A DNA stretch of 64,000 nucleotides from a virus (taxonomy: Duplodnaviria > Caudoviricetes). The position numbers and the translations under genes are program-made. The DNA is taken from IMG/VR virus record IMGVR_UViG_2767802109_000003, positions 1 through 64,000 of that record. The stretch is one strand, 5' to 3'. The notes below the pieces were generated by a model, which saw only the letters and a list, made by a program, of their open reading frames with translations, searched no databases and was not told where the DNA came from. This document shows positions 26,648 through 62,727 of this stretch, piece by piece (positions within the stretch are counted from its first letter, which is position 1; each line of letters starts with the position of its first letter).

Positions 26648-27181
26648 TCAGGTGGCAAGCTGGGTGCGGATCTGCTTGGCCAGGTCGATGACCGCTTCCA
26701 TCGGGATCGCCGCGGTCGACTGGTGCTTGACGCGGAGTCGGCCCTGGTCGAGGAAGGCGATGCCGTTGACGATCTCGTCGGGGCCATCCTCGATCTGGTC
26801 GGTGATGGTGATCTGAGAGCCGGTGAGGGCGATCAGGGTGGCGGTGCGGTCGCCTTCGTGGGTGATGGCGTTGAGGCGGTCGGCGAAGAGCGGGGCGAGG
26901 CCGGTGATGGTGGTCCAGGTGGAGCCGTTCTTGCGGGTGCGGGTCTTCACCGTGGCGGTGGCCGTGATGTCGGCGTGCGTGTAGGTACCGGTGAGGTTGA
27001 TGGTCACGGGCTTGGCCTTCCTGGCACGCAGGGCGCCGATGGTGATCCGGTGGGCGAGGGAGGCGGTGTCGATGATCCAGCGGCCGGCCTGCTTGGTGGC
27101 GGCGATGATGCCGCGGCGGCACCAGGTGCGGATGGTGGCGGTGGTGACGTTGGCCTGGAGTGCGGCGGCGGTGGTGTTCAT
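26648..27181 (-). CDS. Hypothetical protein with N-terminal MerR/Xis-like HTH
   Basis: MNTTAAALQANVTTATIRTWCRRG..AGRWII; RBS AAGGGG. Confidence 0.7.
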   Translation of the reverse strand: MNTTAAALQANVTTATIRTWCRRGIIAATKQAGRWIIDTASLAHRITIGALRARKAKPVTINLTGTYTHADITATATVKTRTRKNGSTWTTITGLAPLFADRLNAITHEGDRTATLIALTGSQITITDQIEDGPDEIVNGIAFLDQGRLRVKHQSTAAIPMEAVIDLAKQIRTQLAT

Positions 27182-27205
27182 CGGGTCCCCCTTGGTTTGA
27201 TGACT

Positions 27206-27234
27206 CCATAATGCCTCATGGTGAGGCATTATGG
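27206..27234 (-). promoter_or_regulatory. Perfect 13-bp inverted-repeat operator overlapping a putative promoter
   Basis: CCATAATGCCTCA-TGG-TGAGGCATTATGG; minus strand reads TTGCCA-18 nt-CATTAT. Confidence 0.75.
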
Positions 27235-27350
27235 CAAGGGAGTGTGACCACCCGATCCCCGGTAGCGGGACCCCAAGACGCAGAATCGCCCGCCACCAGC
27301 AGAAAGCTAATGGCGGGCAGCGAAAAGACCGGTCGGTCGAGGCGGCAAGA

Positions 27351-27441: not shown

Positions 27442-27507
27442 CGTCAACTTTCCGACGGCACCGCCACCATGCCACGCCCCACCGACAAACCGCAGGCGAA
27501 CGCCCGG

Positions 27508-27580
27508 CTACAGCTCCGTCACCTCGAACGGGGCGGGCAGTGGCGGCAGCGCCACCCGCAACGCCCGGCCCAGCAGGGCG
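27508..27580 (-). pseudogene. Truncated C-terminal copy of the 28488-28805 gene
   Basis: Translates ALLGRALRVALPPLPAPFEVTEL*, versus AMLGRALRVQLPPLPSLYELTEL in the intact copy; begins right at the rep stop codon. Confidence 0.75.
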
Positions 27581-28345
27581 CTACCGAGGGAACCTTGCCA
27601 GCCAGGCAGGAAGCGGCTTGTCGTCACTCCAGTAGTGCATCAGCGCATACTTGAACGACAGCAAATCCACCTCGCGAACCGACTGCAAGGCTTGGGGGTC
27701 CTCCCGGCCGAGCTGCGCCAGCGCACGCTGCCGCTTGTCCCGGTACACCTGCGGGCGCTTCCGCTCGAACTGCAACAGCAGCCGACGCACCTGATCGTCG
27801 TCGAGGTCGTTCGCCGACGCATACAGACGGTCGAGTTCCACCTGGCGTCGATCTTGCGCGCTCGTCGCCTCCCCCGCGCGAGCGGCAGCGAGCGCGGAGG
27901 AATGTTCGTCGCCAGCATCTTCTTCCTCCGTACTTCTTCCGTCACTACTTCCTGAAGAGGTACCGCTCACCGACGTCCCGCCGACGGACGTACCGTCCAC
28001 CGACGTGCCGCCAGCGGTACCCCGGTCCCGGGGGATGTCGAACACCTCCAGCACAGTGACGAACCGCCCCCGCTCGCCCTTCTCTCGGCGCCGCACGATG
28101 TAGCCGGCCGCCTCCAGCTCGGAGAACGCCGACCGGAGGCCGCGCCGCCCCTCGCCCACGACATCACCCCGGTGCCGTCGGGCCCGGTCAGACAACGCGT
28201 CAGCGTTCGTTTCCCAGCCCGACGGACGGCTCAACAGCTCGGCCAGCACGCCGCGGGCGCAATACGTCAACCGGTCATCCCGCAGCAGCGCGTTCGGCAG
28301 GATCGTGAAATTGTCGACTGGCCGTGAACGACGGATCTTCAGCAC
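27581..28345 (-). CDS. Second replication-initiator-like HTH protein (plasmid/phage type)
   Basis: DNFTILPNALLRDDRLTYCARGVLAELLSRPSGW and AFSELEAAGY motifs; internal GGTSV repeats (~27970-28020). Confidence 0.68.
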   Translation of the reverse strand: MLKIRRSRPVDNFTILPNALLRDDRLTYCARGVLAELLSRPSGWETNADALSDRARRHRGDVVGEGRRGLRSAFSELEAAGYIVRRREKGERGRFVTVLEVFDIPRDRGTAGGTSVDGTSVGGTSVSGTSSGSSDGRSTEEEDAGDEHSSALAAARAGEATSAQDRRQVELDRLYASANDLDDDQVRRLLLQFERKRPQVYRDKRQRALAQLGREDPQALQSVREVDLLSFKYALMHYWSDDKPLPAWLARFPR

Positions 28346-28487
28346 ACGCCACGCCCTATGAGACTCGGGCACGCCAAAACAATCATGAATGTCCCTGGTG
28401 TTGCGCGGGCCGCACGCCCGCTGATCTGCGAAACGGCCGGACGGGGTCACCGTCCGGCCGATCGTGTGAACCGCTACGCTGCGCCGA

Positions 28488-28805
28488 TCACGCAGACGCC
28501 GAAAGCTCCGTCAGTTCGTACAGGCTCGGCAGCGGCGGAAGCTGCACACGCAGAGCGCGGCCCAGCATCGCGCGGGCCATCAGCTCCCACTCGGCGACGG
28601 GCCGCCCCGCCGGCTTCACGAACAGCAGGCTGCCGTCGGGACGGCGAAACGTACCGCCAGTGAAGCCCGGGTCCGCCTCGATCTCCGTCACGTCCACGTC
28701 GAACTCGGCCAGAAGGGCATCGAGGGGGGCGTTCATCAGACGCTCGGATGTCGGGTTCGTGACGGGGGTCGCAGTGCCGTCCACTCCAGGGGTTGCTAAA
28801 GTCAT
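28488..28805 (-). CDS. Small hypothetical protein downstream of GntR repressor (ImmA/IrrE-like pattern without HExxH)
   Basis: DALLAEFDVDVTEI..GFTG..LLFV..WELMARAMLGRAL; start may be ATG ~28736. Confidence 0.6.
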   Translation of the reverse strand: MTLATPGVDGTATPVTNPTSERLMNAPLDALLAEFDVDVTEIEADPGFTGGTFRRPDGSLLFVKPAGRPVAEWELMARAMLGRALRVQLPPLPSLYELTELSASA

Positions 28806-28908
28806 GACTAGAACTCCGATCTCAGCGGGTTGGATTCTTCTTGGAGCAGCGAGGTGCGAACTCGCCGTTCGAACAGGCCGGGCGGGTGCGAACCGCTCGG
28901 CCGTTCGT

Positions 28909-29646
28909 TTATTCGGTGTCGACCTGCCAGGCCCCCGGCGGGTACACGTCCTCCCAGACCTCTAGCGGTCCGTCTTCATCGTGGAAGACGTTGACCACCA
29001 CCAGAACGGACGCGGCCGACTCCGGGGGAAGATCGATGCCCAGCGCGTTGAGCTCGTCGTTCGAGATGAGGCGGGCAGTCCTGCGCTCCGGCGACCTTGT
29101 GACGTCGCGGCCGGTGCGCTCCTTGTAGAGGTCTTGCCACCAGCGTTCCGACGGTCCGTCGTTCAGCATCTCTGGCACGGTGCCGAGAGCGCGGACGTGG
29201 ATGAACGAGGTGTCGACGGTGGAGGGGGAGCCTTCGCGGTGGTGCACTCGGCGTCGAATGACGACCTCGTCGTGGGGCTCCAGGTCGAGCAGCTGGGCGA
29301 TGACCGGGTCCGCGACCGACCTCATGCCGGCCCAGTGGTTGCTGGAGGTTTCGCCGGGGGCGCGTAGTTCACCAGTGCGCGCCCTTCGTCCCAGCCGGGC
29401 GGCGCCAGTGACGGCCACGTTCGACTGGTGAGCCACGAAGGTGCCTGTCGAGTTCGCCTCCAGGAGACCTTCCGAGGTGAGCGTCTTGAAGGCCTGATCG
29501 ATGGTGCCGGACGCTGCACCGGTCTCTTCTGTGATCTTTCGCCTGGAAGGCAGTCGCGTTCCGGGGGCGAGCGTTCCGTCTTGGATGAGCCGCCGGTAGT
29601 GCGCGGCGATCTCCAGTGCGGTACGCCGTGTGTTCGGCGGCGGCAT
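28909..29646 (-). CDS. GntR/UTRA repressor, KorSA-like
   Basis: N-terminal IAAHYRRLIQDGTLAPGTRLPS..TIDQAFKTLTSEGL wHTH; UTRA-type C-terminus; divergent from transfer operon. Confidence 0.88.
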   Translation of the reverse strand: MPPPNTRRTALEIAAHYRRLIQDGTLAPGTRLPSRRKITEETGAASGTIDQAFKTLTSEGLLEANSTGTFVAHQSNVAVTGAARLGRRARTGELRAPGETSSNHWAGMRSVADPVIAQLLDLEPHDEVVIRRRVHHREGSPSTVDTSFIHVRALGTVPEMLNDGPSERWWQDLYKERTGRDVTRSPERRTARLISNDELNALGIDLPPESAASVLVVVNVFHDEDGPLEVWEDVYPPGAWQVDTE

Positions 29647-29689
29647 GAGTCTCCTGACTTGAGTTTTGGGTGAGGGGGCTTGCTTGCGT

Positions 29690-29813
29690 TCTAGATTAGC
29701 TCTAGATTGGGTTTCCGCAAGCCCCCGCCGCAAGGCGAAAGGGCCTCGCCAGTGGTAGCGCATTGAGCGAGGCCAGGACCCTCGGCACCGGTGGTAGCGC
29801 ACCGATGCCGAGG
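29690..29813 (+). promoter_or_regulatory. Leader of the transfer operon: TCTAGATT direct repeat and two stem-loops with identical GTAGCG loops
   Basis: TCTAGATTAGCTCTAGATT (29690-29708); hairpins 29742-29774 and 29780-29813. Confidence 0.6.
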
Positions 29814-29846
29814 CAGCCAGCAACCTGACCGAACCAGGAGCTAGCC

Positions 29847-30152
29847 ATGCCGAACCTTACCCGTGCTCTAGAGCGCTCCGAGCGCAACCCGGCCCAAACC
29901 GCCCCGCTGAACCCGGCCGCTGCTGCGGCTCTGGCCCGTCTGGAGTCGAAGCTCGGCGCGGCCGATGTGCAGAAGGCTGCCGCCCGCTACAGGGTGGCGT
30001 CGGCCGCGATCGCGAAGGCGTCCCAGGTGTTGGGGGCGCGAGCGTTGACGGAGGTCGAGGCCAGCGACTTCGACTACATGCAGGACGTGATGCGCGAGGC
30101 GCGGACCGTCCTGGCCGCCGCGGGCCAGCTCGACTTGATCGGCGGCGTGTGA
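29847..30152 (+). CDS. Hypothetical protein, first gene of the transfer operon
   Basis: AGGAG RBS. Confidence 0.65.
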   Translation: MPNLTRALERSERNPAQTAPLNPAAAAALARLESKLGAADVQKAAARYRVASAAIAKASQVLGARALTEVEASDFDYMQDVMREARTVLAAAGQLDLIGGV

Positions 30153-30313
30153 TGGCGGCCCGCGAGATCCTCGCCGACTTCCCGGCTGGCAACCCGCGCG
30201 GGTCGTGGCCGGCGGAGGAGAAGGCGGCCGAGCTGACCGCACAGGGCCAGTCCGTCACCGTGACGATGGACCTCGACAGCGACCGGTTCCTGGTCGTGAG
30301 GGCCGAGTCGTGA
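30152..30313 (+). CDS. 53-aa hypothetical protein
   Basis: TGATG coupling; FPAGNPRGSWPAEEKAAEL..MDLDSDRFLV. Confidence 0.55.
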   Translation: MAAREILADFPAGNPRGSWPAEEKAAELTAQGQSVTVTMDLDSDRFLVVRAES

Positions 30314-30480
30314 GCGGCCTGGAGCCCAGCTTGGAGCTGGAGGCGGCGGTCGACGAGGTGTTCCTCGGCTGGTGGCCGGCCGACCTGATGGCCATCGTCC
30401 GCCAGCCCTACGAGCCCGGCGCCATCACCGCCTACGCCCATCGTGATGGCGGCGCGCACCTGCCGGAGCGTGTGTCGTGA
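30310..30480 (+). CDS. Small hypothetical protein
   Basis: GTGA overlaps at both ends. Confidence 0.45.
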   Translation: MSGLEPSLELEAAVDEVFLGWWPADLMAIVRQPYEPGAITAYAHRDGGAHLPERVS

Positions 30481-30707
30481 CGGAGCGGGAGCGTCTGCAG
30501 CTGCTGCGGGCGAAGGCTGCGGAGATTCTGGCGCCGCTGCCGGCGTGGGATGGCGAGTCGCCGTCTGTGTGGGTGGTGGTCGTCGACCCTGAGACGCAGA
30601 ACCGGATCGCCCATTGGCGGGTGCCTGCCGAGGTGGCGCCTCAGCCCGAGTCCCGGCCTCAGCCCCAGTCCCGTCGTCACCTGCGCGCTGTGCCGGACGC
30701 GTCGTGA
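30477..30707 (+). CDS. Small hypothetical protein
   Basis: GTGA overlap. Confidence 0.5.
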   Translation: MTERERLQLLRAKAAEILAPLPAWDGESPSVWVVVVDPETQNRIAHWRVPAEVAPQPESRPQPQSRRHLRAVPDAS

Positions 30708-30929
30708 GTCCGGCCGAGCAGGGCGCGACTGCGAAGGCGCTGGCCGAGCAGACCAGGCGGCACATGGAGGCGGCGAAGGCCGCTGCCGCTGCCGCTGAGG
30801 CCGCCCGACTCGCCGCCAACCGGCCCCGTTAGGGCCCCTGATCCGCCGCGGTCGGCGGTGTCCAACCCCCGTCCCGCCGGCCGCGGCATTCCACCCCCGT
30901 TCCGGATTGACCGACTGAGGAGATCAGCC

Positions 30930-31148
30930 ATGTCCCGATACCTGGAAGAGTCCGCCGCCCTGCTGCGGAAGGCGTCGACGGAGCACGAGCGCAACTACGC
31001 CGACGGGTTGTACGTGAACTCCGCCAACGAGGGCCGTGAGCGGATCGCCCGAGGGTTCGCCGTTCTCGCCGCGATCGACAAGGGCCTGCTGCCCGCCGAG
31101 ATCACGCAGGACGTGATCCGGGCGATCGTCGAGCACCCCACTGTCTGA
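30930..31148 (+). CDS. Hypothetical protein
   Basis: GAGGAG RBS. Confidence 0.55.
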   Translation: MSRYLEESAALLRKASTEHERNYADGLYVNSANEGRERIARGFAVLAAIDKGLLPAEITQDVIRAIVEHPTV

Positions 31149-31192
31149 CCTGCACCCCCCACCCCGCTGTCGACCTGTTGAGGAGTACCCCC

Positions 31193-31414
31193 ATGCCTGT
31201 TTCCGCCCAGACCGACTGGCCTGACGGTGTCGTGGCCCGCTACCGGACCGTCGGCGGCGCGACCGTCGACCTGACCGACGACGCCGAGTGTGTCCGGCTC
31301 CTGTGTTCGGGCTGCGGCTTCGGTAATCGCCACGCCTACTACCCGCCGGCCGCCCACCGGCTCGCCGAGCGCCACGCCGGCAAGTGCCGCCAGGTGCCCC
31401 GCCCCACCGCCTGA
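31193..31414 (+). CDS. Small zinc-binding hypothetical protein
   Basis: WPDGVVARYRTVGGATVDL..CSGCG..HAGKC. Confidence 0.6.
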   Translation: MPVSAQTDWPDGVVARYRTVGGATVDLTDDAECVRLLCSGCGFGNRHAYYPPAAHRLAERHAGKCRQVPRPTA

Positions 31415-31452
31415 CCCCGACCGTCCCGCCCATCCTCCGAGGGGAGGCCCCC

Positions 31453-31893
31453 GTGTTCGCCGACGACAACCCCGCTCTCAGCCCTCTGTGGTCCGGCCGC
31501 CGCGCCCCGTTCGTCGCCTTCCAGACCGCGCTCGGTGGCCTGGCCGGCGCCTACGACCTCCGTGACGGCCGCAGCACCGACCCGACGAGCCGGGTGTCCC
31601 TGTCCGTCGACGACTGGCACGGCTGGCCGATCGTGGCCGCTCGTCGGATCCCGGTCGCCGCGTTCGACGACCTGCTGTTCGCCGTCCAGCAGCTCCGGGA
31701 CCGGAGATTCGACGAGAACCGGCGCTGCGGCTGGACGGGGCAGGTCAACGCGGACCGTCGGGCCGCCGCCCGGGACCGCTGGCTGGCGCGCGGCACCGAC
31801 CCGGACGCGTTCCGGGCCGGGCTGCAGGCCGAGTACGAGGCGTCCGCCCGACTGCACGAGGACGCGGCCAGCCTCCTCGACGGCCCGCTCTAA
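31453..31893 (+). CDS. Hypothetical protein
   Basis: GGAGG RBS. Confidence 0.55.
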   Translation: MFADDNPALSPLWSGRRAPFVAFQTALGGLAGAYDLRDGRSTDPTSRVSLSVDDWHGWPIVAARRIPVAAFDDLLFAVQQLRDRRFDENRRCGWTGQVNADRRAAARDRWLARGTDPDAFRAGLQAEYEASARLHEDAASLLDGPL

Positions 31894-31945
31894 CCGAACT
31901 TCAGCACCCCACCCCATCCCACTGCACCTGAAAGGGCCACCCCCA

Positions 31946-32185
31946 ATGTCTCCGTACCTGATCTCCGCCGACCTGGGTTCCACCGAGATCGGCCTGAAGG
32001 CCCGCACGATCACCAGCGTCGCCGACGCGCTGACCCTGTCGATCGCTGACCTGTTCGGCGAGTACGCCGACGCCCGCCGCTCCGGTGACCCGGCCCGGAT
32101 GGCCGCTGTCCGCGACTACGCGGCCGGGCTGGACGCCGACCTCGTCGCCGAGCTCGACGGCTTCGACTACCCCGCCGCCGCCTGA
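31946..32185 (+). CDS. Hypothetical protein
   Basis: AAAGGG RBS. Confidence 0.55.
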   Translation: MSPYLISADLGSTEIGLKARTITSVADALTLSIADLFGEYADARRSGDPARMAAVRDYAAGLDADLVAELDGFDYPAAA

Positions 32186-32273
32186 CCCGCCCACCGCCGG
32201 GGCGCGGAAACCCCACCGCGTCCCGGCACCCCAGTCCCGCCCGACATCAACCGTCTGACCAGAGGAGAACCCG

Positions 32274-32780
32274 ATGCCCGACACCCTGGCCGCCAACCCG
32301 TTCACGGCCGACGCCGTAACCCGTCCCGCGGTGGAGAAGACCGGCCGCCGCCCCGACTTCTGGATCGGCTACTCCGGCGAGACCATCACCGGCCCGGAGG
32401 TCGCCGACTTCCTCGACGCCACCCGTGTCGTGCTGGAGAAGACCGGCTGGACCCGCAGTTACACCGACAACGACCCGGAGATCCCCGAGCCCGACGAGTC
32501 CCTCTCCATCAAGGCGATGCTGCTCACCCTGTGGAGGTACGCCCGCGAAGCTCTCGGGCAGGAGGGGCCGCTCACCCTCACCTACGGCATGTACCGGGTC
32601 GACAACAACGACGCGAAGCGGGTCGCTGACCGGGTCCTCGATGCGCTCGTCGCCGCGTACACCGGCACGCCGACCGCGCAGGCCACCGCCTGGGCCGAGC
32701 GGAAGAACCGCACCTGGGGTGAGGTCCGGGACCTTCTGACTGCCGGCGTCGACCTCGCCCGCACCCACGGTCCCCGCTGA
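32274..32780 (+). CDS. DUF6197-like protein
   Basis: LEKTGWTR..WAERKNRTWGEVRDLL pattern; family name from memory. Confidence 0.55.
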   Translation: MPDTLAANPFTADAVTRPAVEKTGRRPDFWIGYSGETITGPEVADFLDATRVVLEKTGWTRSYTDNDPEIPEPDESLSIKAMLLTLWRYAREALGQEGPLTLTYGMYRVDNNDAKRVADRVLDALVAAYTGTPTAQATAWAERKNRTWGEVRDLLTAGVDLARTHGPR

Positions 32781-32932
32781 TGCCCGACGACCGCTGCCCC
32801 CAGTGCGAGGAGCACGCCGAGCTCCACAAGGGCAACTGGCTCGGCCTTGGTGATCAGACCAAGCCGTGCCTGCCGTGCGAGGACCACGCGAAGAACGGCT
32901 GCCCTGACCGCCGCAAGATCCGCTGGTGGTGA
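32780..32932 (+). CDS. 50-aa Cys/His-rich protein
   Basis: TGATG coupling; CPQCEEH..CLPCEDH. Confidence 0.5.
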   Translation: MPDDRCPQCEEHAELHKGNWLGLGDQTKPCLPCEDHAKNGCPDRRKIRWW

Positions 32933-33025
32933 CACCCCCCAGCCCTGGCCGACCGATCACGGGTCTACCGCCTCGAAGCAGGCCAGGGCGCTCCGCACCA
33001 CCCAACTCCAACGAGAGGAAGATCC

Positions 33026-33226
33026 ATGAGTTTCAAGAAGGGCGACCTGGTGGTCGTGGTCGCTGCGGGCCCGGAGAACGCGGGCACGGTCGGCAAGACC
33101 GGCATCGTCGTCGACGGCGGGGCCCTGTCCGGTGGCGACGTGTCCGTCAAGGGGATCGACCACCGCGTCGTCGAGGCGATCAAGGGCTACCGGTCGTACA
33201 TGCCCAACCAGCTGCGGAAGGCGTGA
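33026..33226 (+). CDS. Small SH3/KOW-like protein
   Basis: FKKGDLVVVVAAG..GKTGIVVD. Confidence 0.55.
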   Translation: MSFKKGDLVVVVAAGPENAGTVGKTGIVVDGGALSGGDVSVKGIDHRVVEAIKGYRSYMPNQLRKA

Positions 33227-33417
33227 CCGCCGTGCACGCCGGGAGCGCAGACGAGCTGCGCGAGAAGGAGCGCCGGTCGCAGGAGATCGGCCGGAAGATC
33301 GCCGACCTGCTCAACGAGGCAGCCGCCATCGCCCCCGGGGCCGTGTCGGCGAACGTGACCGGGCTCGGCTGGCGGATTCGCGGCGCAGGCGGCGGCTTCC
33401 GCGCCGACACGAGGTGA
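33223..33417 (+). CDS. Small hypothetical protein
   Basis: GTGA overlap. Confidence 0.5.
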   Translation: MTAVHAGSADELREKERRSQEIGRKIADLLNEAAAIAPGAVSANVTGLGWRIRGAGGGFRADTR

Positions 33418-33422
33418 CCGCC

Positions 33423-33620
33423 GTGCCGATCACGTTCCGCAAGAGCTTCCGGATCCTGCCCGGCGTCCGCATCAACATCAACCGCCGGTCCTGGTCGATC
33501 ACCGTCGGGCCGAAGGGCGGACCGAAGCGCACCTGGTCCAGCACCGGACAGACCACCACCAGCTACGACCTCCCCGGACCCTTCGGCTACCGCACCACCC
33601 GCCGCCGCAACCCCCGCTGA
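33423..33620 (+). CDS. DUF4236-like small basic protein
   Basis: FRKSFRILPGVRININRRSWSITVG..LPGPFGYR. Confidence 0.7.
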   Translation: MPITFRKSFRILPGVRININRRSWSITVGPKGGPKRTWSSTGQTTTSYDLPGPFGYRTTRRRNPR

Positions 33621-33634
33621 TCGAAAGGAACGCC

Positions 33635-33763
33635 ATGCCCACGAAGGACAAGTGCTGGGTCTGCGGACGACCCGGAGCCGAACCGGAGCGGACGCTCCTC
33701 GGCTTCAAGAAGCCCGTATGCCCGCCCGGCAAGGGCTGCTCCAGCAACCAGACAAAGCGCTAA
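33635..33763 (+). CDS. 42-aa Cys-containing peptide
   Basis: AAAGGA RBS; CWVCG..VC..GC. Confidence 0.4.
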   Translation: MPTKDKCWVCGRPGAEPERTLLGFKKPVCPPGKGCSSNQTKR

Positions 33764-33796
33764 CACCCACCTCAACTCAGAAGGGACCACGTAGTC

Positions 33797-35203
33797 ATGA
33801 CTGCCAGCCCGCCGAAGGTAAACGGCCACGCCCGGCCGCCGGCCGTGCCGGCCCTGCAAGTACTGGGGGACTGGCAGCCCGTCGCGCCCGAGACCAAGCC
33901 CACCGCCGACAGTGCTAACCCACCCGTCGCTGAGCCGTCCACCACGCCCGGCCCCGACAGCGACCTGGTCGAGCAGGCCAAGGCCGAAGCGATCCGGGCG
34001 CAGGCGTGGGCCGAGTCCGAGGAGCGCCGCCTCGCCGCCGAAGTCGAGAAGGAAGCCGCGCTCAAGCGGGCCGCCGCCGAAGCCGAAGCGATCCGGATCA
34101 AGGCCGAGGAAGACGCCCGGAAGCAGCGCCTCGCCAATGACCGTGCCGAACGCAAGGCCGCTGAGGAGCAGGCGGCATCCCAGGCGCGGATCGCCGAGCA
34201 CAACCGGCGCCGCGACGAAGCCGACCGGGCCCGGGAGCGTGCCGCCCGGGAGGATGCCGAGCAGCAGCAGTCGGAAACCGAGAAGGCCGAGGTTGTCGCC
34301 AAGTCCAGCAAGCGGTGGCGCCGCGTCGCCCTCGGCTTCTACGCCCTGTGCGCCGCAGTCGCCCTGCCCGTGCAGATGGCCGCCTTCTGGGACCCGAACG
34401 CCAAGTACCTCCTCGTCGCCCCGATCTTCATCGAAGTGATCGCCCTCGTCGCTCTCGTCGGCGCCGCCGCAGCGGTGACCGACGGGCGCCCGCAGTGGCA
34501 CTACCGGCTCGTCGCCTGGGCCGGCGCCCTCACCGCCGCCACCATCAACGCCGTACACGGGCTGGGTGCGTTCGATGCCGCCACCGCATTCGGCACCGCC
34601 CTCGCCTCCGTCGCAGGGCCCGGCATGTGGGACCTCCACGAGCACGGCCGGATCCGCAAGCGCGACGGCAAGCCGACCTGGCGCGAGCACCGCGCCGCAG
34701 CGAAGGCAGCTAAGCGGGCCGCCGCCGAGAAGGCCGCGGAGGAAGAGAAGCGGGCCGCCGAGAAAGAGGCCGCCGACGAGGCCGCCCAGGAGGCCGCGAA
34801 GCAGCTCGCGGAGCTGCGCCAGGCCGAGTTCGAAGACGTGTGGAAGCACGCCCGGAAGCTGGCCGCGGCACTCGGCGAAACGACCGTCACCGAGGCCGTG
34901 TGGCGACGTGCGCACAAGGACATCCGCGGCGCCGACCCGGGCGAGGACGCGGAGACGATCCGGGCCCGCAACGCCGCCGAAGCAAGGGTCGAAGCGGCCC
35001 GCCAGAAGCGCTCCGTGAACACCCTCAGCAAGACCACGAACGCACAGCGTGCGATCCAAATGAACGGCTCCCCGCGCCGCTCCTCGTACAAGCCGGTTCC
35101 GCCGCGTCGGACACCCGGCGACACGCCCTCGTACCACCCGCTTGCCCGCCGTGCGAACGGTGAGACGAAGCGCCGCTCGAACGCCGCCAAGAACGCCGAC
35201 TAA
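33797..35203 (+). CDS. Coiled-coil plus four-TM membrane protein (DUF2637/Spd-like transfer accessory)
   Basis: Charged coiled coils flanking four hydrophobic segments; upstream of TraB-like gene. Confidence 0.65.
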   Translation: MTASPPKVNGHARPPAVPALQVLGDWQPVAPETKPTADSANPPVAEPSTTPGPDSDLVEQAKAEAIRAQAWAESEERRLAAEVEKEAALKRAAAEAEAIRIKAEEDARKQRLANDRAERKAAEEQAASQARIAEHNRRRDEADRARERAAREDAEQQQSETEKAEVVAKSSKRWRRVALGFYALCAAVALPVQMAAFWDPNAKYLLVAPIFIEVIALVALVGAAAAVTDGRPQWHYRLVAWAGALTAATINAVHGLGAFDAATAFGTALASVAGPGMWDLHEHGRIRKRDGKPTWREHRAAAKAAKRAAAEKAAEEEKRAAEKEAADEAAQEAAKQLAELRQAEFEDVWKHARKLAAALGETTVTEAVWRRAHKDIRGADPGEDAETIRARNAAEARVEAARQKRSVNTLSKTTNAQRAIQMNGSPRRSSYKPVPPRRTPGDTPSYHPLARRANGETKRRSNAAKNAD

Positions 35204-35227
35204 CCCATCCCTTGGAGTGATCAGATT

Positions 35228-35818
35228 ATGAACGTCACCCTTCGTCGTATCGCCGTGTCGGGCAGTGCCGCGGTCGCCGTCCTCGGCGGTGCCGCCACCA
35301 TCACCCTGGCCGCCCCCTCGCCGGCTTCCGCCGCCGTCTCCGAGCACGTCGTCGAGCGGGCCGTCACCGCCCCCGTCACGCTGCCCGACGGGCGCACGAT
35401 CCGGATCACCGGCATGGGCGGCTACGGCCACCACGCCACCGACAAGCACATCGCCGTCGTCGCCGGATTCAAGGCCGACACCGAGCCCGGCAGCAGCGAC
35501 GGCATCACCAACGGCCTCACCCCCGACGGCGGCACCGGCGCGCAGCTGACCAACCCGCAGCAGCAGGCCCCGGCCGGCACGCAGCAGCAGTACCAGACCC
35601 AGGCGGGCGGGGGCACGATCGGCGTCACGGTCGCTGTCGGCGTCGGACTGCTGATCGGCGTGATCGTCATGCTCAAGCGGGGCTCAATGAAGTTCGTCCA
35701 GGCCGCCGCGTGCATCGCCCTCGGCGTGTACCTCGCCCCCACGTTCGTCGGCCCGCTCGTCCAGCAGCTCGGCGGATCCGTCGGCGTCGGTCTCGGCAAC
35801 GTCTGGTCCGGCTTCTAG
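35228..35818 (+). CDS. Membrane protein with signal-like N-terminus and C-terminal TM segments (transfer/spread accessory)
   Basis: RRIAVSGSAAVAVLGG..ASA; C-terminal hydrophobic helices. Confidence 0.6.
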   Translation: MNVTLRRIAVSGSAAVAVLGGAATITLAAPSPASAAVSEHVVERAVTAPVTLPDGRTIRITGMGGYGHHATDKHIAVVAGFKADTEPGSSDGITNGLTPDGGTGAQLTNPQQQAPAGTQQQYQTQAGGGTIGVTVAVGVGLLIGVIVMLKRGSMKFVQAAACIALGVYLAPTFVGPLVQQLGGSVGVGLGNVWSGF

Positions 35819-35880
35819 GCCACACCCAACCCGCGGGGCCCCAACCGGGGCCACGCCCCGCCCCAGAAAGGACTGGCCCT

Positions 35881-38076
35881 GTGGCCACCGAGACCGAGCC
35901 CGTCGAGCAGCAGATCCCGCCCATGCCGTCCGAGCCGCCCACCATCCCCCGCAAGGAGCGGATCAAGGCCGCGTTCGCCGTACAGCGCGCCCACGCCTCC
36001 GCCCGCACCAAGGACTGGCTCGCAGGCGGCGACCTCGACCACGTCGACATCATCCAAGCCGCCACCGAGCGGAAGAACCGCAAGCACGCCGAGAAGGTCG
36101 CCAACCAGCAGCGGATCGTCGCCGAAGCCCACGGCCGCCTCCACCACGCCAAGATGCAGGCCGAGAACGGGGAGACGGTCAGCGCCGCCACCCTGTCCAG
36201 CCTCGGAGGGCGCGCCGCCGCCGAAGAAGCCAAGCTGTCCGCGCTGCAGGCCACCATCGTGCTGCCGCCCACCGACCGCGAAATCAACAACGTGCGCAGC
36301 GGCAAGAAGGCCGGGCGCGCTGCGATCCTCGCCGGAGGCGGACTCGCCGCGGCGCCCGTTCTCGGCGCCACCATCGAGCAGGCCGCCACCGGTCAGCCCA
36401 TGCTCCTCGCCGCCCTCGGCACCGCCGCCGGCTACGGCTGGTATCTCGTGTCCCGCCCTTTCGTCGCCGGCCAGCCTGCACCTGCCCCGACCATGGGGGA
36501 GCAGCCGCTGGCCTCCGCGGTGGTCAACCTGGCGAAGGACGGGCTGCAGCCGGGGCAGCGTGAGTTCAACGCCCCGCCCCCGCCCGCTCTCACCGTCGAA
36601 CAGTTGGAGGACGCCCTCCGTGCAATCGGCGAGATCCGTGGCGAGGAGAAGATCCAGATCCTGGCTGTGCCGCAGAGGGAGAAGGACGGCAACACCACCG
36701 TCGTGTTCGACCTGCCGCCGCGGACGACCGTCGCCGAACTGAAGAAGAAGCTGCCCAAGCTCGCCGGGGCTCTCGGCCGGGACGTGTCCATGGTCGACGT
36801 GACCAAGGCCGGCACCGAGGCCCGCGCCTCCCTGTGGCTGACCGACCAGGACGCGTTCGAGAACACCCGGCCGTCGCCGCTCATCAAGGCCCCGACCCAG
36901 CTGGATGCGTGGAAGGACGGGGTGCCGGTCGCCTGGAACAAGCGGGGCGCCACCATCCGTCTCGCGATCAACAACCAGTCCTACGTCATCGCCGGCATGA
37001 CCCGCTCCGGCAAGGGCGTCGGCGCGTCCAACCTGGTCGTCGGCACCAGCTTCGACCCGCGGATCAACCTGCGGATCGTGGCAGGGAAGAACAACGGCGA
37101 GTGGGACCCCTACGCCAAGACGGGCGTCGCCTCCACCTACTTCAAGCCCAACCCCGAACGGCTCCTGGCCTTGCTGCGGGCGCTGCTCGCCGACAAGGAC
37201 CGGCGGGAGCGGGACCTGGGCGTACTGGGGAAGTCCAAGCTGGTCGGCCCGGTCATCGAACAGATCGGCGGCATAGAGCTGCTGGTCATCGACGAACTGG
37301 CCACCTACACCCGCCCCGGGAAGCCCCTGCGGGACGAGATCCTGGAAGCGCTGATCGAGCTGTCCGCCGTTGCGGCGGGCGCCGGAATCCTCATGGTGCT
37401 GATCACTCAGTACCCGGAGGCCGATGTCATCCCGCAGGCCCTCGCCATGAACTGCGGCGCCCGGTGGGCGATGCGCGTCGAGAACGCCACCCAGTCCAAC
37501 GCGATCCTCGGCGGCGGCCAGGCCAGCGCCGGGAGGGACGCGTCCAAGTTCGATCCGCCGCGGCCCGGCTTCGGCTGGCTCGTCAACCCGTTTGCCGGCG
37601 TCACCGACCTTGCCCGCTCTTTCGACCTGGACGAGGACGAGCGCGGCGAGATCACGATGCTACTGGAGAAGGCCGCGAAGATCCGCGAGGGTGCGGGGCG
37701 TCTGGCCGGGCAGTGGGACGACCCCATCGAGAAGCATCTCCTCAACGCCACCGGCCTGTCCTCCACGGCCGGCGGACCTAAGCGGGACGGCGTGCCGGGG
37801 CGGAACGTCCTGCAGTTGACGCCCGAGCAGCGTATGCAGATGGACGCCTGTCGGGGCTGCCTGATCGCCATGAACGACCTTGGCCGTGACGTGGCTCAGT
37901 TGGACGAGATGGCCGAGCTGATCGGTGAGTCGATGACGCCTGACCGGTTGGGTGAACTGCTGCGCGCGGCGGGCGCCGGTTCGACCGTGAAGGTCGTCAT
38001 CGAGGGCCGCGGCCGGGTGAACGGCTACCGCCGGGCGCCCATCGTCGACGCTCTCCAGTTCCTCGAAGGCGCCTAG
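35881..38076 (+). CDS. traB: TraB-like FtsK/SpoIIIE conjugative dsDNA translocase
   Basis: Two TM segments, Walker A AGMTRSGKG, Walker B LLVIDE, LITQYP, WAMRV, C-terminal winged-helix-like domain. Confidence 0.85.
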   Translation: MATETEPVEQQIPPMPSEPPTIPRKERIKAAFAVQRAHASARTKDWLAGGDLDHVDIIQAATERKNRKHAEKVANQQRIVAEAHGRLHHAKMQAENGETVSAATLSSLGGRAAAEEAKLSALQATIVLPPTDREINNVRSGKKAGRAAILAGGGLAAAPVLGATIEQAATGQPMLLAALGTAAGYGWYLVSRPFVAGQPAPAPTMGEQPLASAVVNLAKDGLQPGQREFNAPPPPALTVEQLEDALRAIGEIRGEEKIQILAVPQREKDGNTTVVFDLPPRTTVAELKKKLPKLAGALGRDVSMVDVTKAGTEARASLWLTDQDAFENTRPSPLIKAPTQLDAWKDGVPVAWNKRGATIRLAINNQSYVIAGMTRSGKGVGASNLVVGTSFDPRINLRIVAGKNNGEWDPYAKTGVASTYFKPNPERLLALLRALLADKDRRERDLGVLGKSKLVGPVIEQIGGIELLVIDELATYTRPGKPLRDEILEALIELSAVAAGAGILMVLITQYPEADVIPQALAMNCGARWAMRVENATQSNAILGGGQASAGRDASKFDPPRPGFGWLVNPFAGVTDLARSFDLDEDERGEITMLLEKAAKIREGAGRLAGQWDDPIEKHLLNATGLSSTAGGPKRDGVPGRNVLQLTPEQRMQMDACRGCLIAMNDLGRDVAQLDEMAELIGESMTPDRLGELLRAAGAGSTVKVVIEGRGRVNGYRRAPIVDALQFLEGA

Positions 38077-38257
38077 ACATCCTCGGACAGTGGGGTAGTT
38101 CATCCCGTTTAGTCCGCTGGTCAGCGCACGGACGGAGGGTGGGCCCGACCTAGGGACGGCCCACCCCGTGTCCGGCACCAATCCGACCCCCATACCTGCA
38201 CAAACAGTGCACCTGTCTGGGTGTAAACCACCACAAACCAGAAACGGAGACCATCCT

Positions 38258-38665
38258 ATGCCCAAGCAGTGGAGCGCCGGCCAGGCGAAGAAGTTCGCCC
38301 GCGAATTGAAGCTCGGACAGTCCTACTACGTCGTCTACGACATCAGCCGGCGGTGCGCCCCCTACGAGGACTCGCAGCTGTACGGGGAGTACCGGTTCAC
38401 GGACCGGCTGCCGTTCACCGGCAACCCGTGCACGGAGTCCGGGTACAGCGCGGTGACCCTGTGCCAGACCCGCGGCCCGGTCTACGACGCTCCGCCGCGC
38501 GGCATGCGGAACATCGCCGACCCGTCCCCTCAGGTTGCGGGCCCGCTGGGCTCCAACGACTACGAGGGGATCTTGGACGAGGACGAGTTGCGCGGCTTGG
38601 AGAAGCAGGCGGCTCAGGGCTCCAACCCGCGCACCCGGCGGCGGCTCGGCGGCTGGCGCGTCTGA
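38258..38665 (+). CDS. Hypothetical protein
   Basis: GGAGA RBS. Confidence 0.6.
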   Translation: MPKQWSAGQAKKFARELKLGQSYYVVYDISRRCAPYEDSQLYGEYRFTDRLPFTGNPCTESGYSAVTLCQTRGPVYDAPPRGMRNIADPSPQVAGPLGSNDYEGILDEDELRGLEKQAAQGSNPRTRRRLGGWRV

Positions 38666-38856
38666 TGATCACCGACCGGGAGTTGATCCGGGCGTTCGTG
38701 GCCGCACGCAGGCGCGGCGACACCGAGGCAGCCCGGGAAGCCGAGCGCATCGCCCGCCACCGGTTCATCGACGACCCACTGACCACCAACGCCTACCAGG
38801 CAATCGTCGACATCCAAGCCGCAGTGCCGCCAGGAACCCCGCGGCAAGACACCTGA
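38665..38856 (+). CDS. Small hypothetical protein
   Basis: TGATG coupling. Confidence 0.5.
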   Translation: MITDRELIRAFVAARRRGDTEAAREAERIARHRFIDDPLTTNAYQAIVDIQAAVPPGTPRQDT

Positions 38857-38876
38857 CCCAACCGAAGGAGATCACC

Positions 38877-39059
38877 GTGCAGTACACGCACCAGTCCGTG
38901 AAGGACTACATCGCGGCGAAGAAGCGCGGCGACCGTGCCACCACCGACCGGATCATCCGCGAGGTCACGGCCCGCTTCGACACCCGCACCACCGACGGCA
39001 GCGAGGCCGCCGAACTCCTCGACGCCACCATGACCGTCCGCTTCGGCGAGGGGGAGTGA
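38877..39059 (+). CDS. Small hypothetical protein
   Basis: AAGGAG RBS, GTG start. Confidence 0.55.
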   Translation: MQYTHQSVKDYIAAKKRGDRATTDRIIREVTARFDTRTTDGSEAAELLDATMTVRFGEGE

Positions 39060-39064
39060 CTGCG

Positions 39065-39250
39065 ATGCCGACCCGTGAAGCCCTGCTCGACGCCGCCGCT
39101 TCGGCGATGAGGCGAGGCCTGGAGTTGAACGCTCTGGGCGCTGACCCTTCACACCCGGACTACGCGAAGGTCATGCCCGCGCAGCATGCGGCAGCCGCAG
39201 CCGGTATCAGCCCGGCCGAAATCTGGCAGGCGGCCACCCAGCCGAAGTAG
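39065..39250 (+). CDS. Small hypothetical protein
   Basis: GGAG RBS. Confidence 0.5.
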   Translation: MPTREALLDAAASAMRRGLELNALGADPSHPDYAKVMPAQHAAAAAGISPAEIWQAATQPK

Positions 39251-39341
39251 CTCCGCCCGGGGCGCCCCTCGAATGCCTGGCAGCGACCAGGGGCGCCCCG
39301 GTCCCCACGCCCACCCGAAGATCGACGAGGAGAACCCCATC

Positions 39342-39845
39342 ATGCCCACGCTCGCCCACGCGCCCGCAAGTCCGCAGGCGCCGCCCGTCCTCGACCTGGA
39401 CGCCCGACTTGCCCTGGTCGACGCCGCAATGACGGTCCGCCTGGCCGAGGCCGCGGTCGCGTTCGAGGTGAATACGGCGCACCTGCCCGGCGCCGACCCG
39501 ATCCCGCACATCGCCGAGACGCCCCTGCCCGCACCGTCCCCGTACCGGACTCCGCTGGCCGACCTGCTGCACCGGGCCCGGCTGCGGATCGAGGCCGACG
39601 GCTGGTGCCGCGACGCGGTGTTCGACGAGTCGGGCGCCGTCTGCCCGATCCGGGCGATCCGGCTCGAAGCCCGCGGTGACCGGGGCCTCGCCCACGACGC
39701 CTGCGTCGCCCTCCTCGACGCCATCCAGCGGCAGTTCGCCGGCGCCGAGACGATCCCCAGCTGGAACGCCCAGCAGACCAGCGGCGGGCCCGTCCTCGCA
39801 GCATTCGACTGTGCCGCCAGCCGCGCCCACGCCCGCAACCAGTAG
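39342..39845 (+). CDS. DUF6197-like protein (second copy of the family)
   Basis: IEADGWCR..VCPIRAIR..TIPSWN pattern; family name from memory. Confidence 0.55.
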   Translation: MPTLAHAPASPQAPPVLDLDARLALVDAAMTVRLAEAAVAFEVNTAHLPGADPIPHIAETPLPAPSPYRTPLADLLHRARLRIEADGWCRDAVFDESGAVCPIRAIRLEARGDRGLAHDACVALLDAIQRQFAGAETIPSWNAQQTSGGPVLAAFDCAASRAHARNQ

Positions 39846-39855
39846 GAGAGACCCC

Positions 39856-40053
39856 ATGTCGAAGCCCACCCCGGAACAGATCCAGGAAGCAGGCCGCCAG
39901 TTGCAGCGCGGTGGATTCCTCGGCCGCGGCAGCCAGAAGAAGGCCGACCAGGTCATCGAGGAAGCCGTCGCCGCCGGCATGGACCGTCAGGCCGTCGCCA
40001 TGGCCATCCTTGGCGCCGCCGCCGACTACGAGCCCCGACGCTGGGCCAGGTAG
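39856..40053 (+). CDS. Small hypothetical protein, last gene of transfer operon
   Basis: AGGAGA RBS; followed by hairpin ~40084-40110. Confidence 0.55.
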   Translation: MSKPTPEQIQEAGRQLQRGGFLGRGSQKKADQVIEEAVAAGMDRQAVAMAILGAAADYEPRRWAR

Positions 40054-45208: not shown

Positions 45209-45355
45209 GTGCCCGTCAGGTCCAGGGCGCAATGGCGCTGGATGTTCGCCAACAAGAAGGCGTTCGCCCACCGCTGGGCCCGCTCAAGGAAGCGCCGCTA
45301 CGGCAAGACCACCGGCTACCGCACCCTCCCCGCGCGGAAGCGAGCCCGCCGCTAG
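45209..45355 (+). CDS. 48-aa very basic peptide
   Basis: GGAGG RBS; MPVRSRAQWRWMFANKKAFAHRWARSRKRR..; stop overlaps portal stop (CTAG). Confidence 0.6.
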   Translation: MPVRSRAQWRWMFANKKAFAHRWARSRKRRYGKTTGYRTLPARKRARR

Positions 45356-47058
45356 GCAGCAGCCAGCCCCCGCGAGCCCCCGCCCTCCTCTTCGTCCTCG
45401 GTCTCGTCCTGGCCCTCGTCCGATCCGGCCTCGGTACCGTCACTGTCGGCTTCGTCCTCGTCGTTCGGCTCCTCAGGCTCCTCGCCGCCGCCGGTGTTGA
45501 ACGGGTCGCCGGCCGGGGCCATGGACTGCTTGTCGTCGCGGATGCGCCGCACCTCGGCCATGATGTCGGCGTCGTCCCAGGACGGCTCCCGCATCTTCAC
45601 CTTCATGAACGTGGAGATCGCCCCCGCCGAATCCAGCAGCGACAGAGTCCGTGCGGTCGCTTCCGGATCGGGTTGCACCGCCTGCGGCCACGACGCGGTC
45701 AGCTCAGCCGCAGGATCGACACCCTTCGCGCGGCAGTGCCGCACGTCGACCATCATCATCGTCGTCAGATGGTCGAGCAGCGCCGGCCGCTGGTACAGGA
45801 TCTTCGTGCCGCGGGTCGTCAACGACTCTTCCTTGCGGGCCGTCACCTCGGTCGCCGTCGTCGCGACCGTCCCCTCCTCGCCGAAGCTCTGCGCGGAGTA
45901 GCCGGCGCTCGAGAGGATCTGGCGGCGCAGGGCCTTCGCGGTCCGTTCGTGCTCCTCAACCCGGATCTTGAACTGGATGTCGGTGATGGAATCCTTCGCG
46001 TCGCCGCTGTCCAGCATGTTCAGGGCGACCTGCACCTCCTGCTCCAGGTTGTAGGAGCCGCCCGTGCCCGGCCCGTCGGTGTCGAGCATCGACTGCGGGA
46101 TCAGCAGCCGGGCCTTACCCAGCCGTAGGTCCCTCATCCAGCTCGTCCAGGATTCGTCGAGGGCATCCATGAGCGGCTCCACCCCAGACAGGTCTGACCG
46201 GCCGAGCGGCGCCGTGTTCGGCACCCCGTCCCACACCCGGTTCGGCAACACATTCGGTACATGCGTGATCAGCAGCCGGCCGATGCCCGTCGACTGCCGG
46301 CCCTGACTGTCGGTGCGCGCCACCAGGTACTCGGTGTCCGGATGGTCGGCCAGACTGTCCGCCCGCATCCCGAGTACACCAGGGCCGCCCTCGTACAGGC
46401 CGTACTCGATCGCCCCCGGCGTGTGGAACTCCAGCAGCCGCCACACCTTCGACGTGTCCGCAAGAGGCGCCAGCTCCCGCCACACGATCGCCTCCGCCAG
46501 CTCACCCCACCGCCACGTCGGCACCACCGCCTCAGGGGCGATCACATCCGTCCACGGCCGCGGGCGCAGCGTCGTATCCCACACCACCCGCAAGTAGACG
46601 TTCGACAGGCCCGCCGTCAACTCCGCGGCCTCCCGCAGCTTCGCGTGGCCGCGGTCGTCGAGGTAGCGGCCGATCTGCGCTGTCGTCGTCTTCGCGGTGG
46701 CCTTGTCGGTGGAGTCGGCGTCGACCGTCACCTGCGGCACGTCCGCCCACAACAGGTTCGCCGACAGCTCGGCGATGTCCGCGGCGATCGGCACGTGCAG
46801 CTTGGCGGCCTGCTGGCCGGGCGTGGCGTCCTGCCCCCAGAAGGTACGCAGCTCGTCACCGCCAGCAGCACGCCGCTGGTCCACGTCGAAGAACTGGCGG
46901 GCCACAGCGTTGGAGCGGTAGTTCGTGGGCCCGCCGTACACGGCGGCCAGATGATCTGTGTTGCCGGAGTACCAGGCCCGCCACATGTCCATGTCGGCGT
47001 GCGGGATCTCCAGGGCAGGCGGCGGCCAAGTGGTGTTCCCGGACGGGGGCAGTGGCAT
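45352..47058 (-). CDS. Portal protein (SPP1-type)
   Basis: WRAWYSG, LHVPIAADIAELSANLL, GRSDLSGVEPLMDALDESWTSWMRDLRLGKAR; follows terL. Confidence 0.88.
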   Translation of the reverse strand: MPLPPSGNTTWPPPALEIPHADMDMWRAWYSGNTDHLAAVYGGPTNYRSNAVARQFFDVDQRRAAGGDELRTFWGQDATPGQQAAKLHVPIAADIAELSANLLWADVPQVTVDADSTDKATAKTTTAQIGRYLDDRGHAKLREAAELTAGLSNVYLRVVWDTTLRPRPWTDVIAPEAVVPTWRWGELAEAIVWRELAPLADTSKVWRLLEFHTPGAIEYGLYEGGPGVLGMRADSLADHPDTEYLVARTDSQGRQSTGIGRLLITHVPNVLPNRVWDGVPNTAPLGRSDLSGVEPLMDALDESWTSWMRDLRLGKARLLIPQSMLDTDGPGTGGSYNLEQEVQVALNMLDSGDAKDSITDIQFKIRVEEHERTAKALRRQILSSAGYSAQSFGEEGTVATTATEVTARKEESLTTRGTKILYQRPALLDHLTTMMMVDVRHCRAKGVDPAAELTASWPQAVQPDPEATARTLSLLDSAGAISTFMKVKMREPSWDDADIMAEVRRIRDDKQSMAPAGDPFNTGGGEEPEEPNDEDEADSDGTEAGSDEGQDETEDEEEGGGSRGLAAA

Positions 47059-47070
47059 GACGGTCTCCTT

Positions 47071-48321: not shown

Positions 48322-48323
48322 GG

Positions 48324-48839
48324 CTACGCCTCGTCGCCCTCGGCCTCGTCCTGCTCCCGCGAGTACCGGACGAGGGCATCGCCCAGCGACCCCAGCATGC
48401 TCTTGGCCGAATCGAGTCCGGACGCCTCGGCCGGCGGCACCAGCTTCAGCACCTTGTCCACGGCGATCGCCGCGGCGGTGATGAGTGCCTTCCGGTCCGC
48501 GTTCGGCGCCTCGGTGAAGGTGTGCTCGTTGTACTCGTTGTCCTTGCCGCCGAAGGCAAAGACGGTGGTCGGCTGGTAGATGCGGCGCAGGGAGTCCTCG
48601 GCGATCTCCATGAACTGCTCGGCGATCAGGCTGCGGCGCTCCTCGAGGTCTGCGGCGCGCGCCTCGGACGCGGCACGGATCTTCGACCGGTCGAAGGTCA
48701 GACCGAGGTGGGCGGCCGTGCGGGAGATCACCGAGTTGGTGATGCCCATCTCGCGGCTGATCTCGTTACGGCCCATGCCGAGTGCGTGGAGCTCTCGAAG
48801 CTTGGGCCATTTGTCCTCGGCCATGATCTCTCTGGCCAT
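48324..48839 (-). CDS. terS: Terminase small subunit (HTH)
   Basis: N-terminal HTH GMGRNEISREMGITNSVISR; immediately upstream of terL. Confidence 0.75.
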   Translation of the reverse strand: MAREIMAEDKWPKLRELHALGMGRNEISREMGITNSVISRTAAHLGLTFDRSKIRAASEARAADLEERRSLIAEQFMEIAEDSLRRIYQPTTVFAFGGKDNEYNEHTFTEAPNADRKALITAAAIAVDKVLKLVPPAEASGLDSAKSMLGSLGDALVRYSREQDEAEGDEA

Positions 48840-50655: not shown

Positions 50656-50673
50656 GCCACTTAGGAGCCTCCG

Positions 50674-51525: not shown

Positions 51526-51573
51526 TCTTCCGGCGTGATCCTCGCCGCCTCTTCTGACCCCGGGAGCCCTCCC

Positions 51574-51951: not shown

Positions 51952-51952
51952 C

Positions 51953-52573: not shown

Positions 52574-52576
52574 GCC

Positions 52577-53636: not shown

Positions 53637-53651
53637 TGAAGGAGAACACCG

Positions 53652-53975: not shown

Positions 53976-53976
53976 C

Positions 53977-54408: not shown

Positions 54409-54418
54409 GAGGCCCATC

Positions 54419-55018: not shown

Positions 55019-55120
55019 CCCCCGACTGGTGGTCCGTCGCGCTCAATCCCTTGGGCGGGGGCGGCACGACGGACCACCTGCACGCCCCCGCCCCGCCCTC
55101 GCCCAGAAGGAACCCCAGCC

Positions 55121-55947: not shown

Positions 55948-55962
55948 GGGAGGGAGGGCAGC

Positions 55963-62717: not shown

Positions 62718-62727
62718 GAGGCTGGCC

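Follow-up and report, generated by a model that had tools for sequence, protein, structure and literature searches.

A predicted pSVH1-type transfer-and-spread module in an integrated tailed prophage of Streptomyces

The 64,000 nucleotides taken from the IMG/VR virus record IMGVR_UViG_2767802109_000003 (positions 1 to 64,000; hereafter the window) belong, to judge from their genes and repeats, to a temperate prophage of the siphovirus type, 85.1 kb long, of which they make up the left three quarters; a tyrosine integrase has inserted this prophage into the 3' end of bacA/uppP, a gene of its Streptomyces host. Between the replication and regulation genes and the packaging genes lies a predicted transfer-and-spread module of the type known from plasmid pSVH1 of Streptomyces venezuelae. 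Its centre is a TraB-type FtsK-fold translocase of double-stranded DNA, encoded next to an SpdB2-like membrane protein in an operon divergent from a GntR-type repressor gene. Besides spreading in virus particles, the prophage may also do so in their absence. The reading that we favour, with moderate confidence, is that the TraB/Spd module is integral to the phage and pumps its excised double-stranded DNA between hyphae, as an alternative to virions.

The translocase and its operon

The putative translocase gene (35881-38076, plus strand) encodes 731 amino acids, in which profiles, a structure model and BLASTP searches delineate N-terminal helices, a transmembrane (TM) anchor, a motor domain and a probable C-terminal winged helix. 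The protein matches phrog_1358 (FtsK/SpoIIIE-like) with E 4e-28. Its AlphaFold model has a mean pLDDT (predicted local distance difference test) of 68; the best Foldseek matches are FtsK motor domains (E 3e-12), followed by the coupling protein TcpA of pCW3 and then by EssC/EccC. A hydrophobic helix pair at about residues 147-190, found both by a Kyte-Doolittle scan and in the model, is the predicted membrane anchor. The last 92 residues fold in the model as helix-helix-helix-strand-strand (pLDDT 90), and the best Foldseek matches of this part are winged-helix regulators, all weak (E 0.02 or worse). An FtsK-like ATPase with a membrane anchor and a winged-helix tail had been proposed in the initial annotation, and the predicted domains agree with it. 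The Walker A motif reads GMTRSGKG (residues 372-379, window 36994-37017) and Walker B reads LLVIDE.

Relationship to plasmid TraB proteins rather than to chromosomal FtsK had been suggested as a check of the annotation, and the outcome is in its favour. The ATPase aligns with pSVH1 TraB over 380 amino acids (28% identity, E 1e-31, 118 bits in BLASTP), compared with 77 amino acids of the host's own FtsK (39 bits, E 0.004). When pSVH1 TraB is used to query the whole genome, the 35881-38076 gene is the best match (110 bits, E 1e-27), and the next one reaches 49 bits. A chromosomal FtsK paralogue was rejected, because host FtsK matches weakly and pSVH1 TraB far better. The family comprises more than 120 intact 90%-identity clusters, 69% identical or above, nearly all from Streptomyces, and a few close homologues carry PF01580. 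The ratio of non-synonymous to synonymous substitutions (dN/dS) of the gene is 0.14 and 0.21 in comparisons with two relatives.

Genes were called by third-position G+C (GC3), because the DNA is about 70% G+C; 111 genes were obtained in the 64 kb. About 22 GC3-supported genes form the plus-strand operon to which traB belongs (29847-40053). The operon opens with some 15 small open reading frames (ORFs; 29847-33620, plus strand), often overlapping or translationally coupled, which are spd-like by position; several of those at the operon head are kept in a colinear prophage of another species (G261, described below) and in IMG/VR contigs. One gene of this region (32274-32780, plus strand) encodes a protein assigned by Pfam to DUF6197. 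A membrane protein of 468 amino acids follows (33797-35203, plus strand), with an N-terminal coiled-coil-like region, TM segments at 177-223 and a C-terminal domain. It is SpdB2-like: just past the TM helices 57 amino acids are 39% identical to pSVH1 SpdB2 (E 4e-5), it occupies the same slot before traB, and it is kept in nearly all relatives. Directly upstream of traB is the gene for a 187-aa protein with two or three predicted TM helices (35255-35818, plus strand), which is kept together with TraB in G261 and in 9 of the 17 IMG/VR loci considered below. Downstream of traB are encoded a 135-aa protein kept in most relatives, for which there is no family match (38258-38665, plus strand), a second DUF6197 protein (39186-39845, plus strand; E 6e-17), a conserved member of the core also kept in relatives, and the last small ORF of the plus-strand run (39856-40053), 71% identical in G261. 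The two DUF6197 paralogues bracket the SpdB2-like/TraB core.

The repressor gene (28909-29646, minus strand) encodes a GntR/UTRA protein of the HutC type (Pfam GntR and UTRA, E 2e-10 and 4e-10). Its reading frame is open as far as 29823, and the ATG at 29646 is likely the true start. The protein is 28% identical to pSVH1 TraR over 241 amino acids (E 3e-11) and 34% identical to the GntR protein at the equivalent position of plasmid pSLE1, and its gene adjoins and diverges from the tra operon, as does that of a TraR/Kor-type repressor. The region between the two transcription units (29647-29872) is a candidate operator. It contains all three TCTAGA sites of the window (29690, 29701 and 29867), partly within the first codons of the first gene, and two hairpins with a common GGTAGCGCA loop lie in the gap of about 200 bp that precedes the first plus-strand gene.

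On the other side of the repressor gene, past a small ORF supported by GC3 that has no family match (28488-28805, minus strand), is a Rep-like gene (27581-28450, minus strand). Its product, a winged helix-turn-helix (HTH) protein and candidate plasmid-type replication initiator, matches phrog_1456 (E 1e-20) and, through its N-terminal 100-140 residues, the replication-initiator PHROGs 270, 4707 and 428 (E 4e-10 to 3e-6). Rep-like homologues adjoin the GntR gene also in pSLE1 (37% identity), in plasmid NZ_CP109440.1 (27%) and in G261 (38%). Thus the Rep-like gene, the GntR/UTRA repressor, the divergent operon of about 10 kb and its two membrane proteins were all found where the initial annotation had placed them or close by. 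A 15-bp unit is tandemly repeated 3.5 times inside the Rep-like gene (27960-28012, Tandem Repeats Finder). A direct repeat of 77 nt, 74% identical (27505-27581 and 28497-28573), flanks the Rep-like gene alone, which suggests that this gene was acquired as a cassette, at the end of the small gene next to it. About 200 bp covering the start and the upstream region of an HTH_17 gene (26648-27181, minus strand; window 27011-27240) are 81-94% identical at the DNA level to seven Streptomyces plasmids of 86-99 kb, pSLE1 included, and are conserved far above any other part of the block.

Relatives and integrity of the block

The block is an inherited, selected and integral module of the phage lineage, and not a nested actinomycete integrative and conjugative element (AICE), because no att pair or integrase flanks it, because it is colinear with phage genes in a related prophage, because TraB occurs in many prophages, and because of the dN/dS values. 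The absence of a separate integrase and of an evident att pair had been noticed initially, and nested att sites or an integrase had been named as what would speak against the proposal. Neither a flanking direct or inverted repeat pair nor an integrase, the marks of an AICE with its own att sites, was found at the block edges in the 24-46 kb searched, and no third copy of the prophage att repeat was found in the whole genome. A nested AICE was rejected on these grounds. Tandem integration of an AICE and a phage at uppP was rejected for lack of the third att copy.

Relatives were sought in the genomes of 400 other Streptomyces species, and their contexts were examined where long enough. TraB matches of E 1e-30 or better were found in 18 of the 400. 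The most informative is G261, a 79-kb prophage of another species, with an att of its own (34 bp) and an integrase unrelated to the present one. The two prophages are colinear from the Rep-like gene, by way of the tra block, to the genes for packaging, head, tail and lysis (TraB 69%, 468-aa protein 58%, packaging-to-lysis genes 55-91% identical); the same block had been expected at the same position in related prophages, and here it is. In three further att-bounded elements TraB is 54-69% identical, and the terminase, portal, capsid and tape-measure genes downstream of it belong to different families. Two of these (G321 and G370, 53.5 and 61.9 kb) sit at the same uppP site, and their integrases are 56-58% identical to the one described here; the third (G273, 61.7 kb) sits at a different site. 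More distant TraB proteins (40-42% identity) are encoded in G286 and G045, where a terminase gene of the same strand lies 8.5 and 20 kb downstream. In all, at least five further genomes encode a TraB relative upstream of another phage structural module, unrelated to the present one. No nearby terminase of the two families tested was found in G384 and G174.

TraB proteins 62-93% identical are also encoded by 17 viral contigs of IMG/VR (28-90 kb). A five-gene core, specifying the 468-aa, 187-aa, TraB, 135-aa and DUF6197 proteins, recurs across these contigs, and one metagenomic contig has in addition the portal and terminase of the prophage, as far from TraB as they are here. When the block was compared by Megablast with phage and plasmid collections, the sole match was one of 200 bp, outside the tra genes.

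The prophage and the replicons it resembles

The prophage is delimited by an exact direct repeat of 87 bp, whose copies are 85,130 bp apart and are the only two in the 8.39-Mb assembly (whole-genome search). The left copy, attL, is at 289-375 and is followed by a 45-codon orphan of the bacA/uppP end. The right copy, attR, lies past the window end, at window-coordinates 85419-85505, in the 3' end of host bacA/uppP, a gene for 291 amino acids (Pfam BacA, E 7e-87). From the positions of the repeat the prophage extends over 85.1 kb, from window 289 to window-coordinate 85505, and the window is its left 64 kb; a prophage had been rightly recognized in the initial annotation, and its limits prove to reach beyond the stretch then at hand. 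The element sits between the att copies on a 259-kb chromosomal contig, an arrangement that indicates classical integration with the end of the target gene rebuilt.

The integrase gene (381-1775, minus strand; 464 amino acids, phrog_1 E 3e-24) adjoins attL. The left arm continues with genes for a beta-clamp-like protein, a YqaJ exonuclease, RecT, two DNA methylases, and HNH and HTH proteins. At 15334-15373, inside ORF 14695-15795, the 8-bp unit CCTTGCTC, whose length is not divisible by three, occurs five times in a perfect tandem array. Beyond the tra operon, family matches identify the packaging genes (45352-49700, minus strand: MuF-like, a protein with no assigned function of phrog_5536, large terminase and portal) and the head-tail genes (49852-63903, plus strand: scaffold-like, major capsid, connectors, major tail, chaperones, a 1937-aa tape measure, Dit and Tal). 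It is unusual that the minus-strand packaging genes diverge from the operon for scaffold, capsid and tail (49852 onward), and both NZ_CP109440.1 and G261 keep this layout. Past the window end are encoded a beta-helix tailspike, an amidase endolysin for lysis, a second tyrosine recombinase, Xer-like (L045:12338-13480, window-coordinates 76338-77480), and a Ku protein 80% identical to that of pSLE1 (L045:15810-16712, window-coordinates 79810-80712). The recombinase and Ku fit descent from a circular or cohesive-end plasmid-phage. Integrase, att sites, terminase, portal, capsid, tail and lysis genes, the full outfit of a temperate tailed prophage, are therefore all present, lysis genes being added to the packaging, head and tail genes recognized at the outset. 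An element-wide search for P-loop proteins retrieved the terminase and the TraB-like protein only, and no ParA-type ATPase.

The module most resembles the traR-spd-traB region of pSVH1, found also in pSG5. In both a GntR gene diverges from small spd genes, followed by SpdB2, a small ORF, TraB and further small genes. Three homologous proteins (TraB, TraR and SpdB2) are encoded in the same order and orientation, and the two TraB proteins share an FtsK motor, a membrane anchor (predicted in the prophage protein) and, probably, a winged-helix tail. In pSVH1 traB is the sole gene essential for transfer, spreading requires spdB3, spd79 and spdB2, and TraR is a Kor repressor (Thoma et al. 2015, PMC4447253). 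pSVH1 is, however, a 12-kb rolling-circle plasmid, whereas the prophage is an 85-kb integrated tailed phage, and its module differs in having many more small genes, two DUF6197 proteins, a Walker A motif ending in GKG, and no clt repeats found.

The union of a tailed phage with Tra-type conjugation is already known from the plasmid-phage pZL12 (Zhong et al. 2010), whose conjugal transfer has been reported to need a major tra gene together with two neighbours (PMC3583192); pSLE1 of S. leeuwenhoekii, homologous and syntenic to pZL12 (PMC4487206), has the same architecture. Like these plasmid-phages, whose genomes measure about 86-90 kb, the prophage combines in one replicon a tailed-phage gene set and a tra locus, and a tra operon presumed to be under GntR control lies immediately upstream of the genes for packaging. 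In pSLE1 the GntR gene diverges from an operon ending in a 774-aa Tra, and terminase genes come directly after. Genes for GntR (34% identity), Rep-like (37%), HTH (64%) and Ku (80%) proteins are held in common. In contrast, the structural genes of pSLE1 are unrelated to those of the prophage, its Tra is similar to the prophage ATPase, which is of the pSVH1 TraB type, at the Walker motifs only, and the prophage is integrated in the chromosome without ParA, unlike the extrachromosomal, ParAB-bearing pZL12 type.

NZ_CP109440.1, an 87.9-kb circular plasmid of Streptomyces sp. NBC_01483 and itself a phage-plasmid, is closer in its virion genes. The packaging, head and tail module is colinear and 57-86% identical, divergent packaging genes included. 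The replicon has an integrase but, unlike the prophage, exists as a plasmid and encodes ParA. In the same slot, just upstream of packaging, an operon for large membrane proteins diverges from a GntR gene; the products of this operon (DUF2637 of 570 aa, and proteins of 614 and 725 aa) have no detectable similarity to those of the prophage operon. The operon ATPases of pSLE1 and NZ_CP109440.1 were rejected as homologues, nothing being detectable beyond the Walker motifs.

AICEs such as pSAM2, SLP1 and pMEA300 similarly have an integrase, Rep, a GntR Kor-type repressor, spd genes and an FtsK-like Tra, and are bounded by att sites. They measure about 9-24 kb, are found mostly in tRNA genes and have no virion genes, whereas the prophage measures 85 kb, carries a full phage set, and has a tra block devoid of its own integrase and att. 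Descriptions of integrated TraB-bearing prophages were not found in the literature searched, of which coverage was incomplete. What is new relative to pZL12 is chromosomal integration without partition genes, a translocase of the pSVH1 rather than of the pZL12 type, and the breadth of the group.

Possible routes of spread

In the route that we favour, the GntR repressor of the lysogen would keep the operon off through the control region bearing the TCTAGA sites. Derepression of the operon and excision of the prophage as a circle would allow hexamers of TraB to bind a putative clt-like site by means of the winged helix and to drive the circular double-stranded phage DNA through hyphal walls. 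Together with the Spd-like proteins, TraB would also move the circle across the septal cross-walls of the recipient mycelium, and the transferred DNA would re-integrate at uppP. Packaging into virions would be the alternative fate of the same genome. Movement of the excised circle both in virions and by conjugation, as first proposed, is supported as a hypothesis.

Several observations weigh against this route. No clt-like cluster of 8-bp repeats above background was found near traB by exact and one-mismatch scans of 7-9-mers or by Tandem Repeats Finder. The recognition word of pSVH1 TraB (TRS), GACCCGGA, occurs 12 times in the window against 6.5 expected, a number reached in 3 of 100 shuffles; ten of the occurrences are on the plus strand and five lie within 31.8-40.8 kb. 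Over the whole window the word is mildly enriched and dispersed, without a cluster. The module had been called complete-looking in the initial annotation. Its gene set is as claimed; completeness was overstated, because no clt site was identified in the scans. The ATPase has no Pfam match, that with FtsK_SpoIIIE not reaching the cut-off, and scores 23.2 bits (E 2e-5) with NCBIfam plasmid_TraB (NF041214), for which the cut-off is 800, and E 5e-3 with NCBIfam FtsK. In its Walker A motif the lysine is followed by glycine, GKG in place of GK[ST], and all of 27 homologues have this variant. The match to SpdB2 is short and the homology weak. Isolated phages have yielded no close TraB homologue (tblastn, 50,697 phage records, with no actinophage match), so that the formation of particles by the lineage is a prediction. 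Finally, the circle to be moved, of 85 kb, would far exceed pSVH1 and other classical TraB cargo, although Tra proteins also serve large plasmids of Streptomyces.

The module might instead act inside one mycelium only, carrying phage or prophage DNA across septal cross-walls and so spreading lysogeny or lytic replication, with no transfer to other strains. The conserved core does include the SpdB2-like protein and other membrane partners; Spd proteins and TraB of pSVH1 jointly drive intramycelial spreading, and SpdB2 homologues occur on some actinophages, where Thoma et al. (2015) proposed that they might help phage DNA to spread (PMC4447253). Yet plasmid TraB performs intermycelial transfer as well, and pZL12 was reported to be conjugal (PMC3583192). 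The sequence fits either role, and we regard a purely intramycelial function as unlikely, if deserving of attention.

Even less credit is given to the module as a leftover of a plasmid-phage ancestor, either inactive or reused, for instance for the exclusion of incoming DNA or, as a substitute for the missing ParAB, to help segregate the excised circle. ParA is indeed missing from the element, where TraB and the terminase are the only P-loop proteins, and is present in the plasmid relatives; the replacement of the Walker A serine/threonine by glycine and the failure of repeat scans to find a clt point the same way. Decay is, however, argued against by dN/dS values of 0.14-0.21 and by hundreds of intact homologues, the repressor and the membrane partners are kept together with TraB, and the GKG variant is common to the pZL12-type Tra of pSLE1. 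That the block is an independent, self-moving AICE or small plasmid inserted in the prophage is scarcely credible and already largely refuted: Rep-like, GntR, spd-like and TraB genes are the usual content of such elements (PMC3218068), and a diverged 77-nt repeat surrounds the Rep-like gene alone, but the block edges have no integrase or att pair, the prophage att has no third copy, the block is colinear with phage genes in G261, an analogous GntR operon fills the same slot in pSLE1 and NZ_CP109440.1, and TraB relatives reside in many different prophages.

Transfer between hyphae by the integral TraB/Spd module thus remains the favoured reading for this prophage. Its extension to a widespread and hitherto undescribed class of integrated Streptomyces prophages (53-85 kb, of several unrelated capsid and tail lineages), all moving the excised genome as naked double-stranded DNA via TraB and Spd proteins, is put forward tentatively, as somewhat short of probable.

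It is customary to regard phages and conjugative elements as distinct vehicles of gene transfer, and pZL12, one replicon that is both, has passed for a curiosity. The evidence suggests that TraB modules are, under selection, a regular part of many integrated Streptomyces prophages whose virion modules differ. If they work, prophage-finding software and software that finds integrative and conjugative elements would classify the same elements differently, and the modules could possibly serve as tools for the delivery of large cargo to Streptomyces. Capsid-free transmission would then be routine, and would bypass both receptor-based host range and adsorption resistance; phage host range, the spread of lysogens in mycelia and adsorption-based resistance would need rethinking in filamentous actinomycetes.

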